DNA of 16,094 nucleotides from a virus, in UHGV virus genome UHGV-0121456; one strand, written 5' to 3'. The position numbers and the translations under genes were made by a program. Shown piece after piece: positions 4,144-14,215 of this stretch. A model generated the notes under the pieces. It had not been told where the DNA came from and did not search any database. It saw only the letters and a program-made list of their open reading frames with translations. The first letter of the stretch is position 1, and every line of letters starts with the position of its first letter.

Positions 4144-4466
4144 ACTTTCAGGCCCCTCTCATGTAACCAGTGGGCTGCACGCAGCCTGCCGTTTTCCTCA
4201 CCGGCAAGCAGTGCGCGGATAATCCCGACCGCCTCGCTGTCGTCGTCCTTCACCGCGGTATGAAGCGTTATCCCCCGGGCCACGCCACGCTTTATCGTGA
4301 TGACGCCTTTTTTCTCCAGTGCGCGAAGATGCTCTACCGCTGCATTCACTGAACGATATCCCAGCATGGTTGCCACCTCCTGATTGGTTGGCGGGAAGCC
4401 ACGTTCTTTCTGGTAAGAAATCAGCATATCCAGCACCTGCTGCTGGCATTGAGTTAACATCGTCAT
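4140..4466 (-). CDS. LexA-like N-terminal DNA-binding domain protein lacking the S24 peptidase domain
   Basis: 108 aa. LTQCQQQVLDMLISYQKERGFPPTNQEVATMLGYRSVNAAVEHLRALEKKGVITIKRGVARGITL resembles the LexA winged-helix domain. No Ser/Lys peptidase part. ATGA overlaps at both ends. Confidence 0.65.
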   Translation of the reverse strand: MTMLTQCQQQVLDMLISYQKERGFPPTNQEVATMLGYRSVNAAVEHLRALEKKGVITIKRGVARGITLHTAVKDDDSEAVGIIRALLAGEENGRLRAAHWLHERGLKV

Positions 4467-5116
4467 GCCGTCATCTCCCTGACCAGTTTTTCCGCCTGCT
4501 GGCGAACCTGCGCCAGAAAGGCCTCACCACATGCCTCAAGTTCATCGCGCCCGATGTAGCTGATTGCCGGTCCCTTCCAGGTCTTGTCGAAAACAGCAAT
4601 AGCACCAGCGAAGAAAGCGCCTGTCGGCACCTGCTTCTCATCCTTCGGGATAAACCAGGCAGGCAGTTCAAAACCAATACGCCCGCGAATAAAAGCAATA
4701 TGGTCTGCGTCTTCCGGCCACCATACTTCGCTGGTGGCAGCTTTGATCAGGAAAACATAGCGCCCGCCTTTATCACGCATGGCACTGGCATGCTTCATGA
4801 TGTAACGCATGCCGGTGATGTATTGCCCCTCATGCTGACTGGCGCGGCTGTATGGGGGATTACCAAAGGCAGCACCTTTAAGCTCCGCAAGACGTTCTGA
4901 CCAGTCATGCGCCAGCGCGTTGTCTTCCGCCGTGTAATACGCGGCACATTTGGCGTTATCACCGTCAGTGAACAGATCCAGAACAAACGGACCAAACAGG
5001 GTGTTAATTCCCCAGAAAATGTTATCTGGCGTGCGCCACTGATCGCCCACTTCCTTCAGTTCATGGGCTGGTTTGTTCCGCAGTTCCACCAGTGCCTGAC
5101 AATATTTATTACTCAT
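4463..5116 (-). CDS. Phage N6-adenine DNA methyltransferase (Dam-like, Phage_N6A_met type)
   Basis: FGNPPYS catalytic motif. Probable start is ATG at 5116..5114 (MSNKYCQ...) with GGGGG Shine-Dalgarno and TAATG overlap with the upstream gene; the ORF-track start at 5149 is an in-frame GTG inside the upstream gene. Confidence 0.8.
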   Translation of the reverse strand: MSNKYCQALVELRNKPAHELKEVGDQWRTPDNIFWGINTLFGPFVLDLFTDGDNAKCAAYYTAEDNALAHDWSERLAELKGAAFGNPPYSRASQHEGQYITGMRYIMKHASAMRDKGGRYVFLIKAATSEVWWPEDADHIAFIRGRIGFELPAWFIPKDEKQVPTGAFFAGAIAVFDKTWKGPAISYIGRDELEACGEAFLAQVRQQAEKLVREMTA

Positions 5117-5604
5117 TAAGCCCCCACGTAATTCCCTGACAGATACCACTCATCACTCGATACAGCGCGCTTGCTGCTTTTCCGTAAACACTGCTCACGA
5201 CGCGCCAGAAAATTGTTTCGTTCTGGCTGGGAATGGCTTTCACGGAATGCCGCCATCCACACCGTTGCAGCACGACGGTATAAGCCCCTGGACTCCAGTT
5301 CTTCAGCCTGGCGGGTCAGGCACAAAATCTCCCGCGGGTCGTTAGTGCCGACATAGAAATTGCGCACAGGTCTGGTTTCACGAACTGGTTGCGGTTCCGC
5401 CTCCTGCGCTCTCTCAGTCAGGCGCGGGAAATGTCTGCGTGTATCCCCTTCACAACGGTGAGCCACACGACCACTCTGACGTAACTTGCTTGCTGACTGC
5501 AGAACGCGCTGCCGTGAGTAACCAGCAAAAGCATCCGCAATGTCTCCGGAAGTACACCCCGGATGGGCTTCAATGTATTTCTGAACTTCATTCAAAAGAC
5601 TCAT
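5116..5604 (-). CDS. PerC/ANR-family regulator-like protein
   Basis: C-terminal LESRGLYRRAATVWMAAF resembles the PerC/ANR motif. Probable ATG at 5604..5602 with GGGGG Shine-Dalgarno, directly after the replication gene stop. Family assignment is from memory of the motif. Confidence 0.5.
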   Translation of the reverse strand: MSLLNEVQKYIEAHPGCTSGDIADAFAGYSRQRVLQSASKLRQSGRVAHRCEGDTRRHFPRLTERAQEAEPQPVRETRPVRNFYVGTNDPREILCLTRQAEELESRGLYRRAATVWMAAFRESHSQPERNNFLARREQCLRKSSKRAVSSDEWYLSGNYVGA

Positions 5605-5606
5605 GA

Positions 5607-6548
5607 TCACCCCCTGAATCCTGCCGGGATCTGGCTGTAGTCCACGTTGTCGTAACTGGCTTTGAAGTACGGGTCTTCGCGTTTTTCGGTGTACGTGCTG
5701 ACGGACGGCGATAAGCGCAGGGAAAGCTCATCCCATTTTTCCCGCAGCTTCGACGGGCTGAGCACGTTACGGCACCAGAACGGATCGCGGCTGACGCGGC
5801 TGTACATCTCGCAGATTTGTTTGTGAGTACGACCATCCTGCACACACATCAGGCGAATTTCGTTTGCCCAGGCTGTCCAGTTCGGTTCTTTGGGACGAAC
5901 CACCTCGCCGTCACATTCGGCGGCCTGCTCGTACAGGGCGATGATTTTTTTCCAGAGCCACTGTGCGCAGGTCAAATCATCCTGCGTTCCCCACTGGCGC
6001 TTTTTAGGGCTGAATACAACCGCATCAGGATGGCGAGTTAAAAAATCCTGTTCATCCGTCTGCGTGTCCGGTTGCGAAGCGTCCGGACGAGAAGGTTTTT
6101 TATCTGACGGATCATGTTTTGATTTTACTGACGGATCCCCGCCAGATTCTGACGGGTGAAAACCCGCTTTTTTGCCAGATTTCGACGCATCAAATTTTGA
6201 CGGGTCAGATTTTGATGCGTCAGATTTTGACGGGTCAGAATCTGACAGTTGAGAAAATGCCGCTGCCTGAAGCTTCGCAACGTTAAGCTGATAAACATTC
6301 GACGCATTGCGGTTACCCTGGCGACGCGCCTTACGCGTTAACCAGCCTTCTGCTTCCAGCCGTGCGATAGCCGTTCTGACGGTACTCATCCCCGCGCCAA
6401 TCTGACGGGCAATGGTTTCAATTGATGGCCAGCACACACCTTCGTCATTACTGAAATCAGCCAGGCGGGCCATAATTGCCACGCTGGATAATTTCATGCC
6501 TGACGCTGCGCAACCATCCCATACATAGCCGGTTAATTTAGTGCTCAT
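5607..6548 (-). CDS. Replication initiation protein (lambda O-like organiser): N-terminal helix-turn-helix, repeat-encoded linker, C-terminal domain
   Basis: N-terminus [70 protein letters not shown] is a winged-helix replication-initiator type. Internal SDPSKSDASKSDPSKFDASKSG repeats are encoded by DNA iterons. Position is cro-proximal. Confidence 0.7.
   Translation of the reverse strand: MSTKLTGYVWDGCAASGMKLSSVAIMARLADFSNDEGVCWPSIETIARQIGAGMSTVRTAIARLEAEGWLTRKARRQGNRNASNVYQLNVAKLQAAAFSQLSDSDPSKSDASKSDPSKFDASKSGKKAGFHPSESGGDPSVKSKHDPSDKKPSRPDASQPDTQTDEQDFLTRHPDAVVFSPKKRQWGTQDDLTCAQWLWKKIIALYEQAAECDGEVVRPKEPNWTAWANEIRLMCVQDGRTHKQICEMYSRVSRDPFWCRNVLSPSKLREKWDELSLRLSPSVSTYTEKREDPYFKASYDNVDYSQIPAGFRG
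6145..6253. repeat. Iterons (about 15 bp tandem repeats, ATTTTGACGGGTCAG-like): candidate replication origin inside the initiator gene
   Basis: Units at 6194-6208, 6209-6223 and 6224-6238, with degenerate copies at about 6145-6161, 6176-6193 and 6239-6253. A moderately AT-rich stretch lies at 6085-6125. Confidence 0.6.
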
Positions 6549-6717
6549 GACCGACCTCTATTTCCCTGAATTTACGACGAAACTGTTCGAGCGGGCTGAA
6601 GCACTCATGCTCATAGCCTTCACGGAGGTAGATAACCCGTTGTGTTTCCGGCTCCCAACGAATGACTCTGACGGGCACTCCGTAGTGATCTTTGAACCAG
6701 CGGTTAACTTGTCGCAA
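6538..6717 (-). CDS. Alternative-frame small ORF (59 aa, TTG start) or the true C-terminus of the preceding gene after a frameshift
   Basis: Frame ending at TAA 6540..6538 encodes [58 protein letters not shown]. It overlaps the replication-gene ATG (ATGAGCACTAA). AAGGAG at 6731..6726 lies 8 nt upstream of TTG at 6717..6715. Confidence 0.35.
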
Positions 6718-6896
6718 AGGACTGTCTCCTTCTGCCGGTTGAAATCACCCACAGCCCACTCAGCAAAGCTGTGGGTTACAATTTCCCTGTCACCTGGTAC
6801 ATTCACTGCATAGCAATACTCCACCTTCGCTTTTCCACCCGGTACAGGAAGCGCAATCAGTTGCGAGCGACGGTAGTGTGTTGTTAAACTGTTCAT
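6558..6896 (-). CDS. Hypothetical protein, frame-conflicted; the N-terminal half looks genuine, the C-terminal half looks like out-of-frame translation
   Basis: ATG at 6896..6894 is coupled (ATGA) to the upstream CII-like gene. The second half ([55 protein letters not shown]) is Ser-rich and low in complexity. Confidence 0.4.
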
Positions 6897-7456
6897 GCGT
6901 TAGTTTCTCCACAGTCACGACACGCCACGGCGCCCGGAGCTGCACACTCGCGGGCGTCACTACTTTCTGAAACGCAAAAGATTTTGTAGACCAGTGCTGC
7001 ATGCTCCTGCAGCTTCGAAATTGAGAGATACAGCTCGTCGTTAATTGCTGTCTTCTCATGCGGTTCCACTACACCGTCTTCGATTGCTGAACGAATCTGT
7101 TTTGAATAACTGCCGATCTGTTCAATGACTTCCAGCAGACGCTGGTTAATATCGGCGTTGTCCACATCCTCGACGTCAGGAAGAGACACAAAGACGCCAT
7201 TTGCAGACTGCGCCACAGCGTCAGCAATGAAGTGAGTTCCACCAGCACGTTGCAAAATCATTGCCCATCCCAGCGGGAAAATCTGATCGCCATCGGCACG
7301 AAGGCGGTTAAATAATGCGTTCTCTGTTACATCCAGCCAGTCAGCAGCTTCAGCGTAACCCCCCGGCAACGCTGCGATAGTTTTTCTGACAGCTTTCACG
7401 TACCACTCAGGCTGTTTTTCTATTTTCCAGTGATGCTTACCCACGGTTAGCCTCAT
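6893..7456 (-). CDS. CII-like or YdaT-like early regulatory protein (tentative)
   Basis: 187 aa immediately downstream of cro on the same strand, the position lambda cII occupies. Family assignment is tentative and from memory. Start is ATG at 7456, or GTG at 7444 with an AGG Shine-Dalgarno. Confidence 0.45.
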
Positions 7457-7487: not shown

Positions 7488-7688
7488 CTAATCTTTCGGA
7501 TAGATATCCGGTCTTAAGTCAGATTTCGTAATTGCACCTGACGTGCATTGCTCAAGTTTTTTAGCCAGCACAAAACTGGCTTTTTTATAGCCATTGAAAA
7601 CCAGCCGTAAGTAGCCAGGTGTTGAGCCAACTTTTCCGGCCAACTCGCCCTGCTGTTCTTTGGTTAAAGAGTCCCAATACGCTTTCAT
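7488..7688 (-). CDS. cro: Cro-like helix-turn-helix repressor
   Basis: 66 aa MKAYWDSLTKEQQGELAGKVGSTPGYLRLVFNGYKKASFVLAKKLEQCTSGAITKSDLRPDIYPKD. ATG at 7688..7686 with GGAGG 10 nt upstream. Divergent from cI. The longer track ORF 7488..7991 would run through the operator region. Confidence 0.75.
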   Translation of the reverse strand: MKAYWDSLTKEQQGELAGKVGSTPGYLRLVFNGYKKASFVLAKKLEQCTSGAITKSDLRPDIYPKD

Positions 7689-7778
7689 ACAATATGTACC
7701 TCCGGTGTACATATTACATGATTGAAATGAACCTTCAAGATACTTGTACCTTAACGGTACAAGGGTTTTAATTTCGTT
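7689..7778. promoter_or_regulatory. OR-like immunity region: two palindromic operators (7692-7714 ATATGTAC-N7-GTACATAT; 7743-7763 CTTGTACC-N5-GGTACAAG) overlapping divergent promoters
   Basis: Perfect 8 bp inverted repeats sharing TGTAC-N7-GTACA. Candidate pR on the minus strand: -35 TTGAAG (7738..7733), 16 nt spacer, -10 TAATAT (7716..7711). Candidate pRM on the plus strand: -10 TTTAAT (7767-7772) about 7 nt before the cI ATG, which would make cI mRNA leaderless. Confidence 0.55.
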
Positions 7779-8453
7779 ATGAAAACAATCCATGACATCC
7801 GGCGGTCTAACGCCAGAAAACTGAGAGATGGTGTTGGCGGGAATTCTTCCTTTGCCACTATGATTGATCGCGAGCCAACCCAGACCAGCAGGTTTATGGG
7901 AGATGGTGCTACTAAAAATATCGGTGACAGCATGGCACGACACATCGAAAAATGTTTCGACCTGCCTGTCGGATGGCTCGATCAAGAACACCAGACAACG
8001 AACATCACAAAAAAACCTGATGTTTCAATCACTAATAAACAAATCACATTAGTCCCTGTCATATCATGGGTACAGGCCGGAGCATGGAAAGAAGTTGGAT
8101 ATTCTGAGGTTGATTTGAGCACAGCAGAAACGTATCCCTGCCCTGTACCCTGTGGGGAAATGACTTATATCTTGCGGGTGATAGGTGATTCAATGATTGA
8201 TGAGTACCGCCCGGGAGACATGATTTTTGTCGATCCTGAAGTACCTGCCTGCCACGGTGACGACGTTATTGCATTGATGCACGATACAGGCGAAACCACC
8301 TTCAAAAGGTTGATAGAAGATGGGACACAGCGTTATCTCAAAGCGTTAAACCCAAACTGGCCTGAGCCTTACATTAAGATCAACGGTAATTGCTCTATAA
8401 TTGGTACAGTGATTTTCTCAGGAAAACCAAGAAGATACAAAATCAAAGCCTAA
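7779..8453 (+). CDS. cI: CI-type prophage repressor (helix-turn-helix plus S24 LexA-like autopeptidase domain)
   Basis: 224 aa. C-terminal GDSMIDEYRPGDMIFVD ... TFKRL holds the Ser/Lys dyad. Divergent from cro across the operator region. No strong Shine-Dalgarno. Confidence 0.85.
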   Translation: MKTIHDIRRSNARKLRDGVGGNSSFATMIDREPTQTSRFMGDGATKNIGDSMARHIEKCFDLPVGWLDQEHQTTNITKKPDVSITNKQITLVPVISWVQAGAWKEVGYSEVDLSTAETYPCPVPCGEMTYILRVIGDSMIDEYRPGDMIFVDPEVPACHGDDVIALMHDTGETTFKRLIEDGTQRYLKALNPNWPEPYIKINGNCSIIGTVIFSGKPRRYKIKA

Positions 8454-12988: not shown

Positions 12989-14215
12989 ATGATTGATAAT
13001 GAAGTTAAAATTTTTGCAAAAGAAAAAGAAAAAATGCTGTGCAACAAACTTTCTTTTTACAGGGAGCATGCTCAATCGAGTGAAGATACAAGAAAAAGAA
13101 ACGAATTTGAACGAGACTATGCGCGTATTCTTTATTCCTCTTCGTTCCGCCGGTTACAGGGGAAAATGCAGCTCTTTGAAGTCGATCCTCAAAAATTTAA
13201 CCGTAATAGACTGACTCATAGCCTAGAAGTTGCCCAGATAGCCCGAAGCATCGCATCCGAACTAGAACTTGAACATCCTGTTGTAGCAGAACTGGCTGCA
13301 CTTGCTCACGATATTGGCAACCCTCCGTTTGGTCATTCCGGTGAAAAAAAGCTAAACGATATTGCTAATGATTTCGGCGGCTACGAAGGCAATGCACAGG
13401 CACTTAGAATACTCAGAAGTCTCGAGATAAAGCATCCAAATTGCCCCGGTCTCAACCTTACCCACCGTGCCATTCTCTCCGTCGTTAAATATCCTTATAA
13501 AAAGGAAAACGGCAGAAAAAAATATCTTTATAATGATGACTATAAATACTACACAGAATTGGTAAATAGATATGAATTAGATTTGCAGACTGGCGAGAAG
13601 ACCATTGATGCACAGATAATGGATCTGTCAGACGAAATTGCATATGCCGCGCATGACCTTGAAGATGCACTAAGCCGTAGCATGGTCAGTATTGAAGATA
13701 TTTTTTATGAGTTTGGGATATCCAAGTACAAAGACTCAATTGATTTATTAAATACAATCATTGAAAAATCTAAATATACAGCTTCGAGAGCATCAAGACT
13801 CAATTCATCTGAAGAGTTCGCCATAATATTCAGAAAGGAATTGACATCCAATATTGTTAATGCGCTTGTTAATGATATTACTGTTATTCAAAGTGAAAAT
13901 GGATTCAAGCAACTTGGATTTAGCACTACAAAAAATCTGTCTGCAGGCCTTAAAGATATCGTATTTAAAGTCATCATGCGAAAAAGAGATATTAAAAGTT
14001 ATGAGCACAAAGGAAACATTATCATCGAAGATTTATTTAATTTTTATAATTATAGAGATAACATAGAATTCATATCCCCTCAACTGTATAGAACGCTCCC
14101 AAATAAAATAGAGCCTATTTATCAAGAACTTAAAAAACGTGCAATTGTCGACTACATCTCTGGAATGATGGATACATTTGCCATCCGCGAGTGGGAAACG
14201 CATCACAAAAAATAA
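12989..14215 (+). CDS. dGTPase-family HD-domain deoxynucleoside triphosphate triphosphohydrolase (Dgt-like); candidate nucleotide-depletion defence gene
   Basis: 408 aa. Motifs RLTHSLEVAQIARSIA, HDIGNPPFGHSGE, YEGNAQALRIL, DLSDEIAYAAHDLEDAL, VDYISGMMDTFAIREW match E. coli Dgt signatures. ATG at 12989 with GAGAGG Shine-Dalgarno. Sits in a strongly AT-rich island between the xis-like gene and the integrase. Confidence 0.85.
   Translation: MIDNEVKIFAKEKEKMLCNKLSFYREHAQSSEDTRKRNEFERDYARILYSSSFRRLQGKMQLFEVDPQKFNRNRLTHSLEVAQIARSIASELELEHPVVAELAALAHDIGNPPFGHSGEKKLNDIANDFGGYEGNAQALRILRSLEIKHPNCPGLNLTHRAILSVVKYPYKKENGRKKYLYNDDYKYYTELVNRYELDLQTGEKTIDAQIMDLSDEIAYAAHDLEDALSRSMVSIEDIFYEFGISKYKDSIDLLNTIIEKSKYTASRASRLNSSEEFAIIFRKELTSNIVNALVNDITVIQSENGFKQLGFSTTKNLSAGLKDIVFKVIMRKRDIKSYEHKGNIIIEDLFNFYNYRDNIEFISPQLYRTLPNKIEPIYQELKKRAIVDYISGMMDTFAIREWETHHKK

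Follow-up and report, generated by a model that had tools for sequence, protein, structure and literature searches.

A probable lambda-type replication origin within the initiator gene of a lambdoid prophage of the SfIV/SfII type

The 16,094-nucleotide stretch of UHGV virus genome UHGV-0121456 analyzed here in its entirety (the window) carries on its minus strand, at positions 5607-6548, a replication initiator gene encoding 313 amino acids, and the middle of this gene contains a cluster of 15-bp direct repeats (iterons) beside an A+T-rich patch. Together, the repeats and the patch make up the candidate replication origin that is the subject of this report. By its sequence, the window corresponds to the early region of an SfIV/SfII-like lambdoid prophage; over bases 5400-6900, identity is 99.4% to Shigella phage SfIV and 98 to 99% to SfII and to many Escherichia coli prophages. 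The initiator gene, which was defined by its open reading frame (ORF) and translation and by the 99.4% identical DNA in SfIV, is the equivalent of SfIV gp41.

Repeats and an A+T-rich patch within the initiator gene

Tandem Repeats Finder reported 6176-6239 as a repeat with a period of 15 (4.3 copies, 81% matches, score 86), and a period of 30 scored 100. The core of the array consists of four tandem 15-bp iterons, R1 to R4, at 6180-6239, with the minus-strand unit TCTGACNNNTCAAAA, which is translated as SDxSK, and the consensus T-Y-T-G-A-C-N-C-N-T-C-A-R-A-A. Read on the coding (minus) strand, R1 (6239-6225) and R3 (6209-6195) are both TCTGACCCGTCAAAA, R2 (6224-6210) is TCTGACGCATCAAAA and R4 (6194-6180) is TTTGATGCGTCGAAA; the consensus contains the inner dyad TGA-N4-TCA, and the four units encode SDPSK SDASK SDPSK FDASK. 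A degenerate outer copy at 6240-6254 (minus strand TCTCAACTGTCAGAT) was recognized from a motif match with one mismatch on the plus strand and from the codon map. Beyond the other end of the array lie three dispersed, iteron-like copies: R5 (6147-6161, TTTCACCCGTCAGAA), which sits in the block of frozen silent sites described below; R6 (6126-6140, GGGGATCCGTCAGTA), which has an invariant GATC and in which GAT CCG TCA GTA is found in 46 to 47 of 47 non-redundant relatives; and R7 (6102-6116, CATGATCCGTCAGAT), which has a second conserved GATC 24 bp from that of R6. A preliminary description of this DNA had proposed tandem 15-bp units with degenerate flanking copies that encode a linker inside the initiator gene. 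Both parts of that proposal held, in that the repeats occupy codons 104 to 148 of the ORF and encode SDPSKSDASKSDPSKFDASKSG, as the description had written.

These 15-bp units are the sole family of multicopy direct repeats in the window. When at most one mismatch was allowed, the motif TYTGAYNNNTCRRAA matched the window 12 times against an expectation of 1.68; 200 shuffles never gave as many, and 10 of these matches fell in 6147-6255.

Downstream of the iterons along the direction of transcription lies the A+T-rich patch (6093-6128, 69% A+T), a candidate DNA-unwinding element and the least stable 30- to 40-bp duplex window of the initiator gene. Its G+C content is 30.6%, compared with 53% for the gene, and the stretch that had been singled out earlier as richer in A+T, 6085-6125, is indeed so, if modestly (36.6% G+C). 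The limits first given to the whole element, 6061-6253, needed some adjustment: the functional-looking stretch is 6093-6254, and 6061-6092 shows no special conservation.

Conservation of the repeats at the DNA level

Repeats within a gene could be ordinary coding repeats, that is, a low-complexity, disordered Ser/Asp/Lys linker that was expanded by replication slippage and whose DNA has no role in cis. Such an explanation would fit a period that is a multiple of three, a copy number that varies in 5-amino-acid steps among homologs and a linker that is predicted to be disordered, and slippage and gene conversion can homogenize the codons within one array. We measured codon fixation on 314 repeat units from 61 distinct linkers, using the rest of the same genes as background. 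In the repeat units TCT accounted for 84% of the position-1 Ser codons (9% in the background), GAC for 82% of the Asp codons (49%), TCA for 85% of the position-4 Ser codons (18%) and AAA for 99.5% of the Lys codons (60%). The units were fixed as TCT GAC NNN TCA AAA, with the central codon free to vary. These codons are kept across the 61 linkers, which come from many genera, while the amino acids change, the central residue being any and position 1 being Ser, Phe, Pro or Tyr, which argues against a linker shaped as peptide. The replacements of the position-1 Ser by Phe, Pro or Tyr preserve the nucleotide motif, and the change from Ser to Phe retains its T-T.

A silent-site test, made on the third positions of conserved residues in 47 non-redundant genes that are less than 90% identical to each other, led to the same view. 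A 60-bp block at 6105-6164 (consensus GGT TTT GAC CCG TCA GAA TCT GGN GGG GAT CCG TCA GTA AAT TCA AAA CAA GAT CCA TCA) is conserved as DNA across genera. Mean third-position entropy was 0.34 bits in this block and 1.47 bits in the part of the gene encoding the N-terminal domain (Mann-Whitney p = 1.8e-7), and pairwise nucleotide identity was 85% and 71%, respectively. The third positions, which are saturated in the N-terminal domain, are nearly invariant in the block (TCA in 47 of 47 genes and GTA in 46 of 46, for example). Because silent positions are frozen here but saturated in the N-terminal domain, selection acts on the DNA itself. The pattern is the signature of a cis-acting DNA element, and the SDxSK peptide repeat is a by-product, arising because the iteron period happens to be 15 bp, or five codons. 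The frozen block lies beside the array and is not itself repeated, and sister initiators carry 22- to 23-bp repeats at the same place (see below). The notion of ordinary coding repeats, which the preliminary description had raised against its own proposal, is thus contradicted by the frozen silent sites and by the repeats of the sister genes, and we consider it extremely unlikely.

Conservation of silent sites could also stem from an antisense gene, from an RNA element or from a boundary sequence that promotes the exchange of N- and C-terminal modules. In 42 of 62 relatives, one antisense frame runs through the array and the block without a stop, but it is broken in the other 20, and openness in the 42 is expected because the repeat is palindromic and free of stop codons; we therefore rejected an overlapping antisense gene. 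An RNA element might be read into a terminator-like hairpin, CGGGTGAAAACCCG, followed by the T run CTTTTTTGCC, which lies on the plus (antisense) strand at 6153-6175, where a spacer separates the tandem iterons from the dispersed ones. However, a sigma-70 scan of 5500-7000 gave no promoter-like site for an antisense or RNA transcript, so that an antisense promoter built from the repeated TTGAC on the plus strand was also discarded. Similarly, the only Rfam match in 5400-6900 was to a microRNA family at 30.7 bits, far below the threshold of 97, and can be put down to the palindromic nature of the repeats. A boundary sequence would fit the position of the block exactly at the point where the C-terminal domain is swapped, but it would leave unexplained both the tandem, dyad-symmetric units and the change of repeat with the N-terminal domain. 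We regard this set of explanations as very unlikely and favor a DNA element that is recognized by the initiator.

Linkage of the repeats to the N-terminal domain

The initiator matches PHROG 391 ("replication initiation O-like," E = 1e-135), and its sole Pfam match is the HTH_36 winged helix (amino acids 23 to 70, E = 4e-11). In an AlphaFold model, a winged helix (residues 1 to 98) and a helical domain (residues 165 to 282) are folded, and the predicted local distance difference test score (pLDDT) is below 50 for residues 102 to 164 and 283 to 313. The low-pLDDT linker from 102 to 164 is exactly the repeat-coding part of the gene. The N-terminal winged-helix domain, the presumed reader of the iterons, is encoded at 6255-6548 on the minus strand (amino acids 1 to 98; assigned from Pfam HTH_36 and Foldseek), and its best Foldseek matches are winged helices of the MarR/ArsR type. 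The C-terminal domain (amino acids 166 to 285, encoded at 5694-6053 on the minus strand) is homologous to that of lambda O, as shown by an hhalign comparison of the initiator-family alignment with lambda O (probability 99.6%, E = 6.7e-24, 38% identity over 124 columns).

Other searches were negative. The initiator did not match Phage_rep_O (PF04492), whereas lambda O itself does so at E = 5.7e-36, and a Pfam search gave no match to the DnaT DNA-binding domain PF17948. Neither DnaD_N nor DnaB_2 exceeded the Pfam threshold (DnaD_N scored 19.4 bits against a cutoff of 27), a result that does not mark the protein as a DnaD-like loader or replisome organizer. A sequence search against solved structures returned weak MarR-type matches to the N-terminal domain only, and Foldseek of the whole model against the Protein Data Bank found the winged helix and nothing for the C-terminal domain. 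On these comparisons, the gene is a chimeric O-like initiator, in which a lambda-O-type C-terminal domain is joined to a different, winged-helix N-terminal domain.

We took 80 related loci from bacterial genomes and found that the initiators are mosaics and that the repeats go with the N-terminal domain. Residues 1 to ~161-180, comprising the N-terminal domain and the repeats, are shared by 52 loci that carry another C-terminal domain, so that this N-terminal unit occurs joined either to the present C-terminal domain or to one of the Phg_2220_C type. Conversely, the same lambda-O-like C-terminal domain is found with unrelated N-terminal domains, and other repeats then stand at the same position, with periods of 23 bp (L016 and L067), 22 bp (L069) and 21/24 bp (L068). 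Since periods of 22 and 23 bp are not multiples of three, such repeats cannot be peptide repeats. A subtype of the N-terminal domain that is 55% identical to the present one has a modified 15-bp unit, RTTGA(C/G)4YYAA.

The 313-amino-acid form with intact repeats heads the largest cluster of homologs (>5,400 member sequences), and repeat-deleted forms have 1 to 6 members each. Three rare E. coli homologs, P0015, P0017 and P0019 (287, 282 and 274 amino acids, respectively), have lost the whole tandem array, apparently through recombination between repeat copies, and they probably belong to defective prophages without an origin. Other initiator variants (303, 318 and 323 amino acids) differ by whole 5-amino-acid units.

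Comparison with known lambdoid origins

The arrangement described above resembles that of lambda ori in gene O in several ways. The candidate origin falls within the central, linker-encoding segment of its initiator gene, the iterons show an inner dyad and precede the A+T-rich patch along the direction of transcription, the C-terminal domains are homologous, and the gene is part of an early rightward operon in which it comes after cro-like and cII-like genes. The published description of lambdoid origins agrees with the layout and polarity found here (PMC7466680). Unlike lambda O, the present initiator has an HTH_36 winged helix in place of Phage_rep_O as its N-terminal domain, and whereas lambda has four iterons ~20 to 24 bp apart, the iterons here are spaced at 15 bp, are unrelated in sequence and include three extra dispersed copies. 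The A+T-rich patch is weaker than in lambda, no P gene is present, and the extreme C terminus is SQIPAGFRG instead of the NTDWIYGVDL of lambda O.

In P22, a rep_origin is annotated inside the initiator gene, gene 18, from about codon 118, and four short repeats, visible as the peptide repeat FGKTFTRSVKLTFTKSVKT, likewise precede an A+T-rich run. Here, as in lambda and P22, transcription therefore passes through the iterons before it reaches the A+T-rich patch, and the start of the repeats near codons 100 to 118 matches the annotated origins of both. Unlike the initiator studied here, P22 gp18 has an N terminus that resembles lambda O (both start VAxLDDGYxRxxNxLLEA, a likeness by motif alone). 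Its C-terminal part shows no resemblance to the present domain when compared by eye, its tail is unrelated, and its gene is followed by one for the phage's own helicase, the DnaB-like gp12. As at the Stx-phage origins of 933W and P27, which have six iterons, the number of iterons is not constant among close relatives, and the initiator lengthens or shortens accordingly. The Stx-phage origins differ from the present one in having true lambda-type O proteins and iterons, together with P. Their function was proved by means of synonymous iteron mutations (PMC7466680).

We concluded that 6093-6254 is probably the vegetative replication origin of this SfIV/SfII-like prophage, located where the initiator gene encodes its linker. 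Most likely it is an unannotated origin of the lambda type, in which a textbook design is combined with another DNA-binding domain and another iteron. This conclusion upholds the earlier suggestion of lambda-like, initiator-binding repeats and an A+T-rich patch within the initiator's own gene, which is supported by the constraint on the DNA, the pairing of repeats with the N-terminal domain, the homology of the C-terminal domain and the polarity; the comparison with lambdoid origins that had been recommended along with it gave a match in layout and polarity to the annotated origins of lambda and P22.

Several observations weigh against this conclusion. The A+T-rich patch is short and moderately unstable (within about the top 6% of the whole window) and is much weaker than that of lambda. 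DnaA boxes (TTWTNCACA) are absent near the initiator gene, and their count in the window is at chance level. The TGA and TCA half-sites are 7 to 8 bp apart and the units 15 bp apart, which leaves little room for a dimeric winged helix. As the compared sequences are relatives of one another, the statistics do not come from independent samples, although the contrast is one within the same genes. The conserved block sits at the junction where C-terminal modules are exchanged, and its conservation could thus be due in part to frequent recombination there and not to origin function. In addition, our literature search found no paper that maps this origin, the SfIV genome paper is silent on an origin, and binding by the initiator, unwinding and origin activity are all points that we infer for this family.

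The weakness of the A+T-rich patch would also be compatible with a different role, in which the repeats are initiator-binding sites for autoregulation, handcuffing copy control or phage exclusion and the true origin lies elsewhere. Iterons in plasmids double as control elements, and cloned lambda origin fragments exclude related phages (PMC3349717). A separate origin was an outcome that the preliminary description had allowed for, but we found no second iteron-like cluster between the Q gene and the integrase gene. The arrangement and polarity copy those of the mapped or annotated lambda and P22 origins, and control and origin functions are, in any case, compatible with each other. We therefore consider a purely regulatory role unlikely and retain the interpretation of 6093-6254 as an origin.

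A model for initiation

In the mechanism that we propose, the early rightward operon (cro-like, cII-like, DUF4222-like and initiator genes, a gene order that is observed) would first supply the initiator, whose N-terminal winged helix would bind the four tandem and three dispersed iterons, as suggested by the constraint on the DNA and by the co-inheritance of domain and repeats. The resulting nucleoprotein complex, by analogy with the lambda O-some, would destabilize the 36 bp of A+T-rich DNA next to it. Host DnaB helicase would then be brought in, without a phage P protein, by the lambda-O-type C-terminal domain and the tail that follows it. Direct recruitment of host DnaB-DnaC would be the most likely route, because the initiator and host DnaT share this C-terminal peptide, and the covariation of neighboring genes described below points the same way. 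Bidirectional (theta) replication would follow.

Several iteron plasmids, exemplified by those with pSC101 RepA, R6K pi and RK2 TrfA, use host DnaB-DnaC without a loader of their own. The parallel proposed here is that a winged-helix initiator binds direct repeats beside an A+T-rich region and itself recruits the host helicase. These plasmid origins differ from the present one in lying outside the rep gene and in usually having DnaA boxes, which are absent here. Furthermore, plasmid Rep proteins carry two winged helices, whereas the Pfam matches in the present initiator are to a single one.

Helicase loading and the C-terminal tail

We found no homolog of lambda P, DnaC or DnaB in the window, including by ORF-independent tblastn, and the annotated genome of the isolated phage SfIV contains no P, DnaC, DnaB, helicase, loader or primase gene. 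The preliminary description had stated that no P- or DnaC-like gene follows the initiator, had called this atypical and had advised a search for a loader beyond the window. The absence was borne out in both the window and SfIV, whose whole genome has no annotated loader, but the word "atypical" was not: 50 of 51 loci whose initiators have the same C-terminal tail are without a phage loader, and the loader-less state is therefore common in this group. Such initiator-only modules are reportedly described in the review of phage replication modules by Weigel and Seitz.

The tail in question is encoded by the last nine codons of the gene (5610-5636, minus strand). It reads SQIPAGFRG-COOH, with 8 of its 9 residues identical to the C terminus of E. 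coli DnaT, and is a candidate docking peptide. DnaT ends in ...VSEPDSQIPPGFRG-COOH, the initiator studied here in ...VDYSQIPAGFRG-COOH and its relatives in ...ISEPDTEIPPGFRG-COOH. This FRG tail (..IPxGFRG-COOH) is strongly conserved in DnaT orthologs, distant ones included, lies in the region of the AlphaFold model that is disordered (283-313) and is found on three kinds of initiator C-terminal domain (CTD), namely, lambda-O-like, Phg_2220_C and DnaT-CTD-like.

Across the 80 related genome loci, it was the extreme C terminus, rather than the domain, that tracked the neighboring gene. In all 8 loci whose initiators have lambda-O-like tails (..TDWIYGVDL) or ..HWNSPEAWENTL, a lambda P homolog came after the initiator gene, whereas the 51 FRG-tailed initiators, with either type of C-terminal domain, were followed by a P homolog in no case, by a DnaB homolog in no case and by a DnaC homolog in one, L068 (the contrast is that between loci L008-L013, L056, L058 and L070 and loci L002-L079). 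Five further records were drawn from annotated collections, beyond the 80 genome loci, and in one of these, L085, an FRG-tailed initiator is immediately followed by a DnaC homolog (the coordinates for the two cases are 3894-4613 in L068 and 2644-3390 in L085). In L068 and L085, the initiator gene is thus placed immediately before a dnaC homolog, mirroring the host dnaT-dnaC operon.

Taken together, these patterns suggest that the tail may dock host DnaC or DnaB-DnaC and so replace P. More tentatively, and as a possibility that we would not yet call probable, the tail could be a portable docking peptide that is shared with host DnaT and recruits DnaC or the DnaB-DnaC complex. If this is true, the tail would explain how initiator-only lambdoid modules load a helicase and would indicate which part of DnaT makes the handover to DnaB-DnaC. 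A 2026 structural paper states that the way in which DnaB-DnaC is recruited by DnaT and the preprimosome "remains unknown" (PMC13377028), and the structure of DnaT residues 154 to 179 is given as unknown (PMC4132743). The tracking of loader genes by the tail offers a testable answer to the question of how loader-less lambdoid modules work, and it is in this respect that we find the tail the more interesting lead.

The likeness to DnaT is confined to this peptide. The globular domains of the two proteins have no detectable relation, and a relationship between the lambda-O-like C-terminal domain and the DnaT C-terminal domain was not supported by hhalign, which aligned the tails alone (last 33 columns, probability 27%). 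Unlike the initiator studied here, DnaT acts with PriA and PriB at abandoned forks, not at a duplex origin. We rejected the idea that the FRG tail is paired with a phage DnaB-type helicase as in P22, since the P22 gp18 tail is unrelated and a DnaB homolog was present in no locus.

A third type of tail (..RWNxIWK..) has no recognizable loader alongside. Record L085 is NZ_CP148542.1, a 15,977-bp circular E. coli "plasmid" made up entirely of early and lysis functions of the lambdoid type (repressor, cro, FRG-tailed O-like initiator, DnaC-like gene, Q and lysis genes); it may be either a lambda-dv-like replicon or an assembly artifact. In the plasmid collection, matches were mostly prophages in large or misassigned records, and we saw no clean mini-replicon of exactly this type. 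The proteins P0306, P0331, P0288, P0337 and P0342 resemble phage initiators, are 280 to 400 amino acids long and have the full DnaT C-terminal domain together with an FRG tail; the linkers of such proteins are repetitive (NVTRNVT and GVTQRNA, for example). Phage proteins with the full DnaT domain probably explain the label "primosomal protein I" in some phage records.

Gene order, distribution and annotation

The minus strand of the window carries, in order, a cro-like gene (7488-7691), a cII-like gene (6893-7456), a DUF4222-like ORF (6558-6896), the initiator gene, a YfdN/PerC-like gene (5116-5610; Pfam PerC, E = 7.5e-10; PHROG 1324), a Dam methylase gene (4463-5149) and genes for LexA-like, RusA, KilA-N and DUF968 proteins and the Q antiterminator. 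A cI-type repressor gene (7779-8453) lies on the strand opposite to the initiator operon. The YfdN/PerC-like gene overlaps the stop codon of the initiator gene by 4 nucleotides, which is the position of lambda P relative to O, and members of its family were found after loader-less initiators in many related loci.

A 341-nucleotide region around the repeats (5990-6330) was found in 2,059 of the 5,426 complete E. coli genomes examined. In these genomes, RefSeq labels the initiator only as a "helix-turn-helix domain-containing protein," and the names used in phage records are inconsistent ("primosomal protein" and "replication protein O"). A defined origin and iteron consensus would improve the annotation of such prophages and, as some variants have lost their iterons, would help to tell intact prophages from defective ones. 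Definition of the origin would also guide studies of incompatibility or exclusion in the serotype-converting Shigella phages.

Two minor features of the region may be added. The dispersed copies with a GATC, at 6110 and 6134, both use GAT in 41 to 47 of 47 relatives, and the tandem copies use GAC; in a scan of 119 ORFs lying downstream of the 51 initiators with an FRG tail, 43 proved to be DNA methyltransferase genes (Dam, D12, C5 or MT-A70). The GATC sites and the nearby methyltransferase may point to a methylation-sensitive origin or only to anti-restriction. Elsewhere in the window, between the early-left genes and the integrase gene, a plus-strand gene at 12989-14215 encodes a 408-amino-acid protein with HD and HD_assoc domains (dGTPase-like); no such gene was seen in the SfIV annotation, and it may be a cargo or defense gene.

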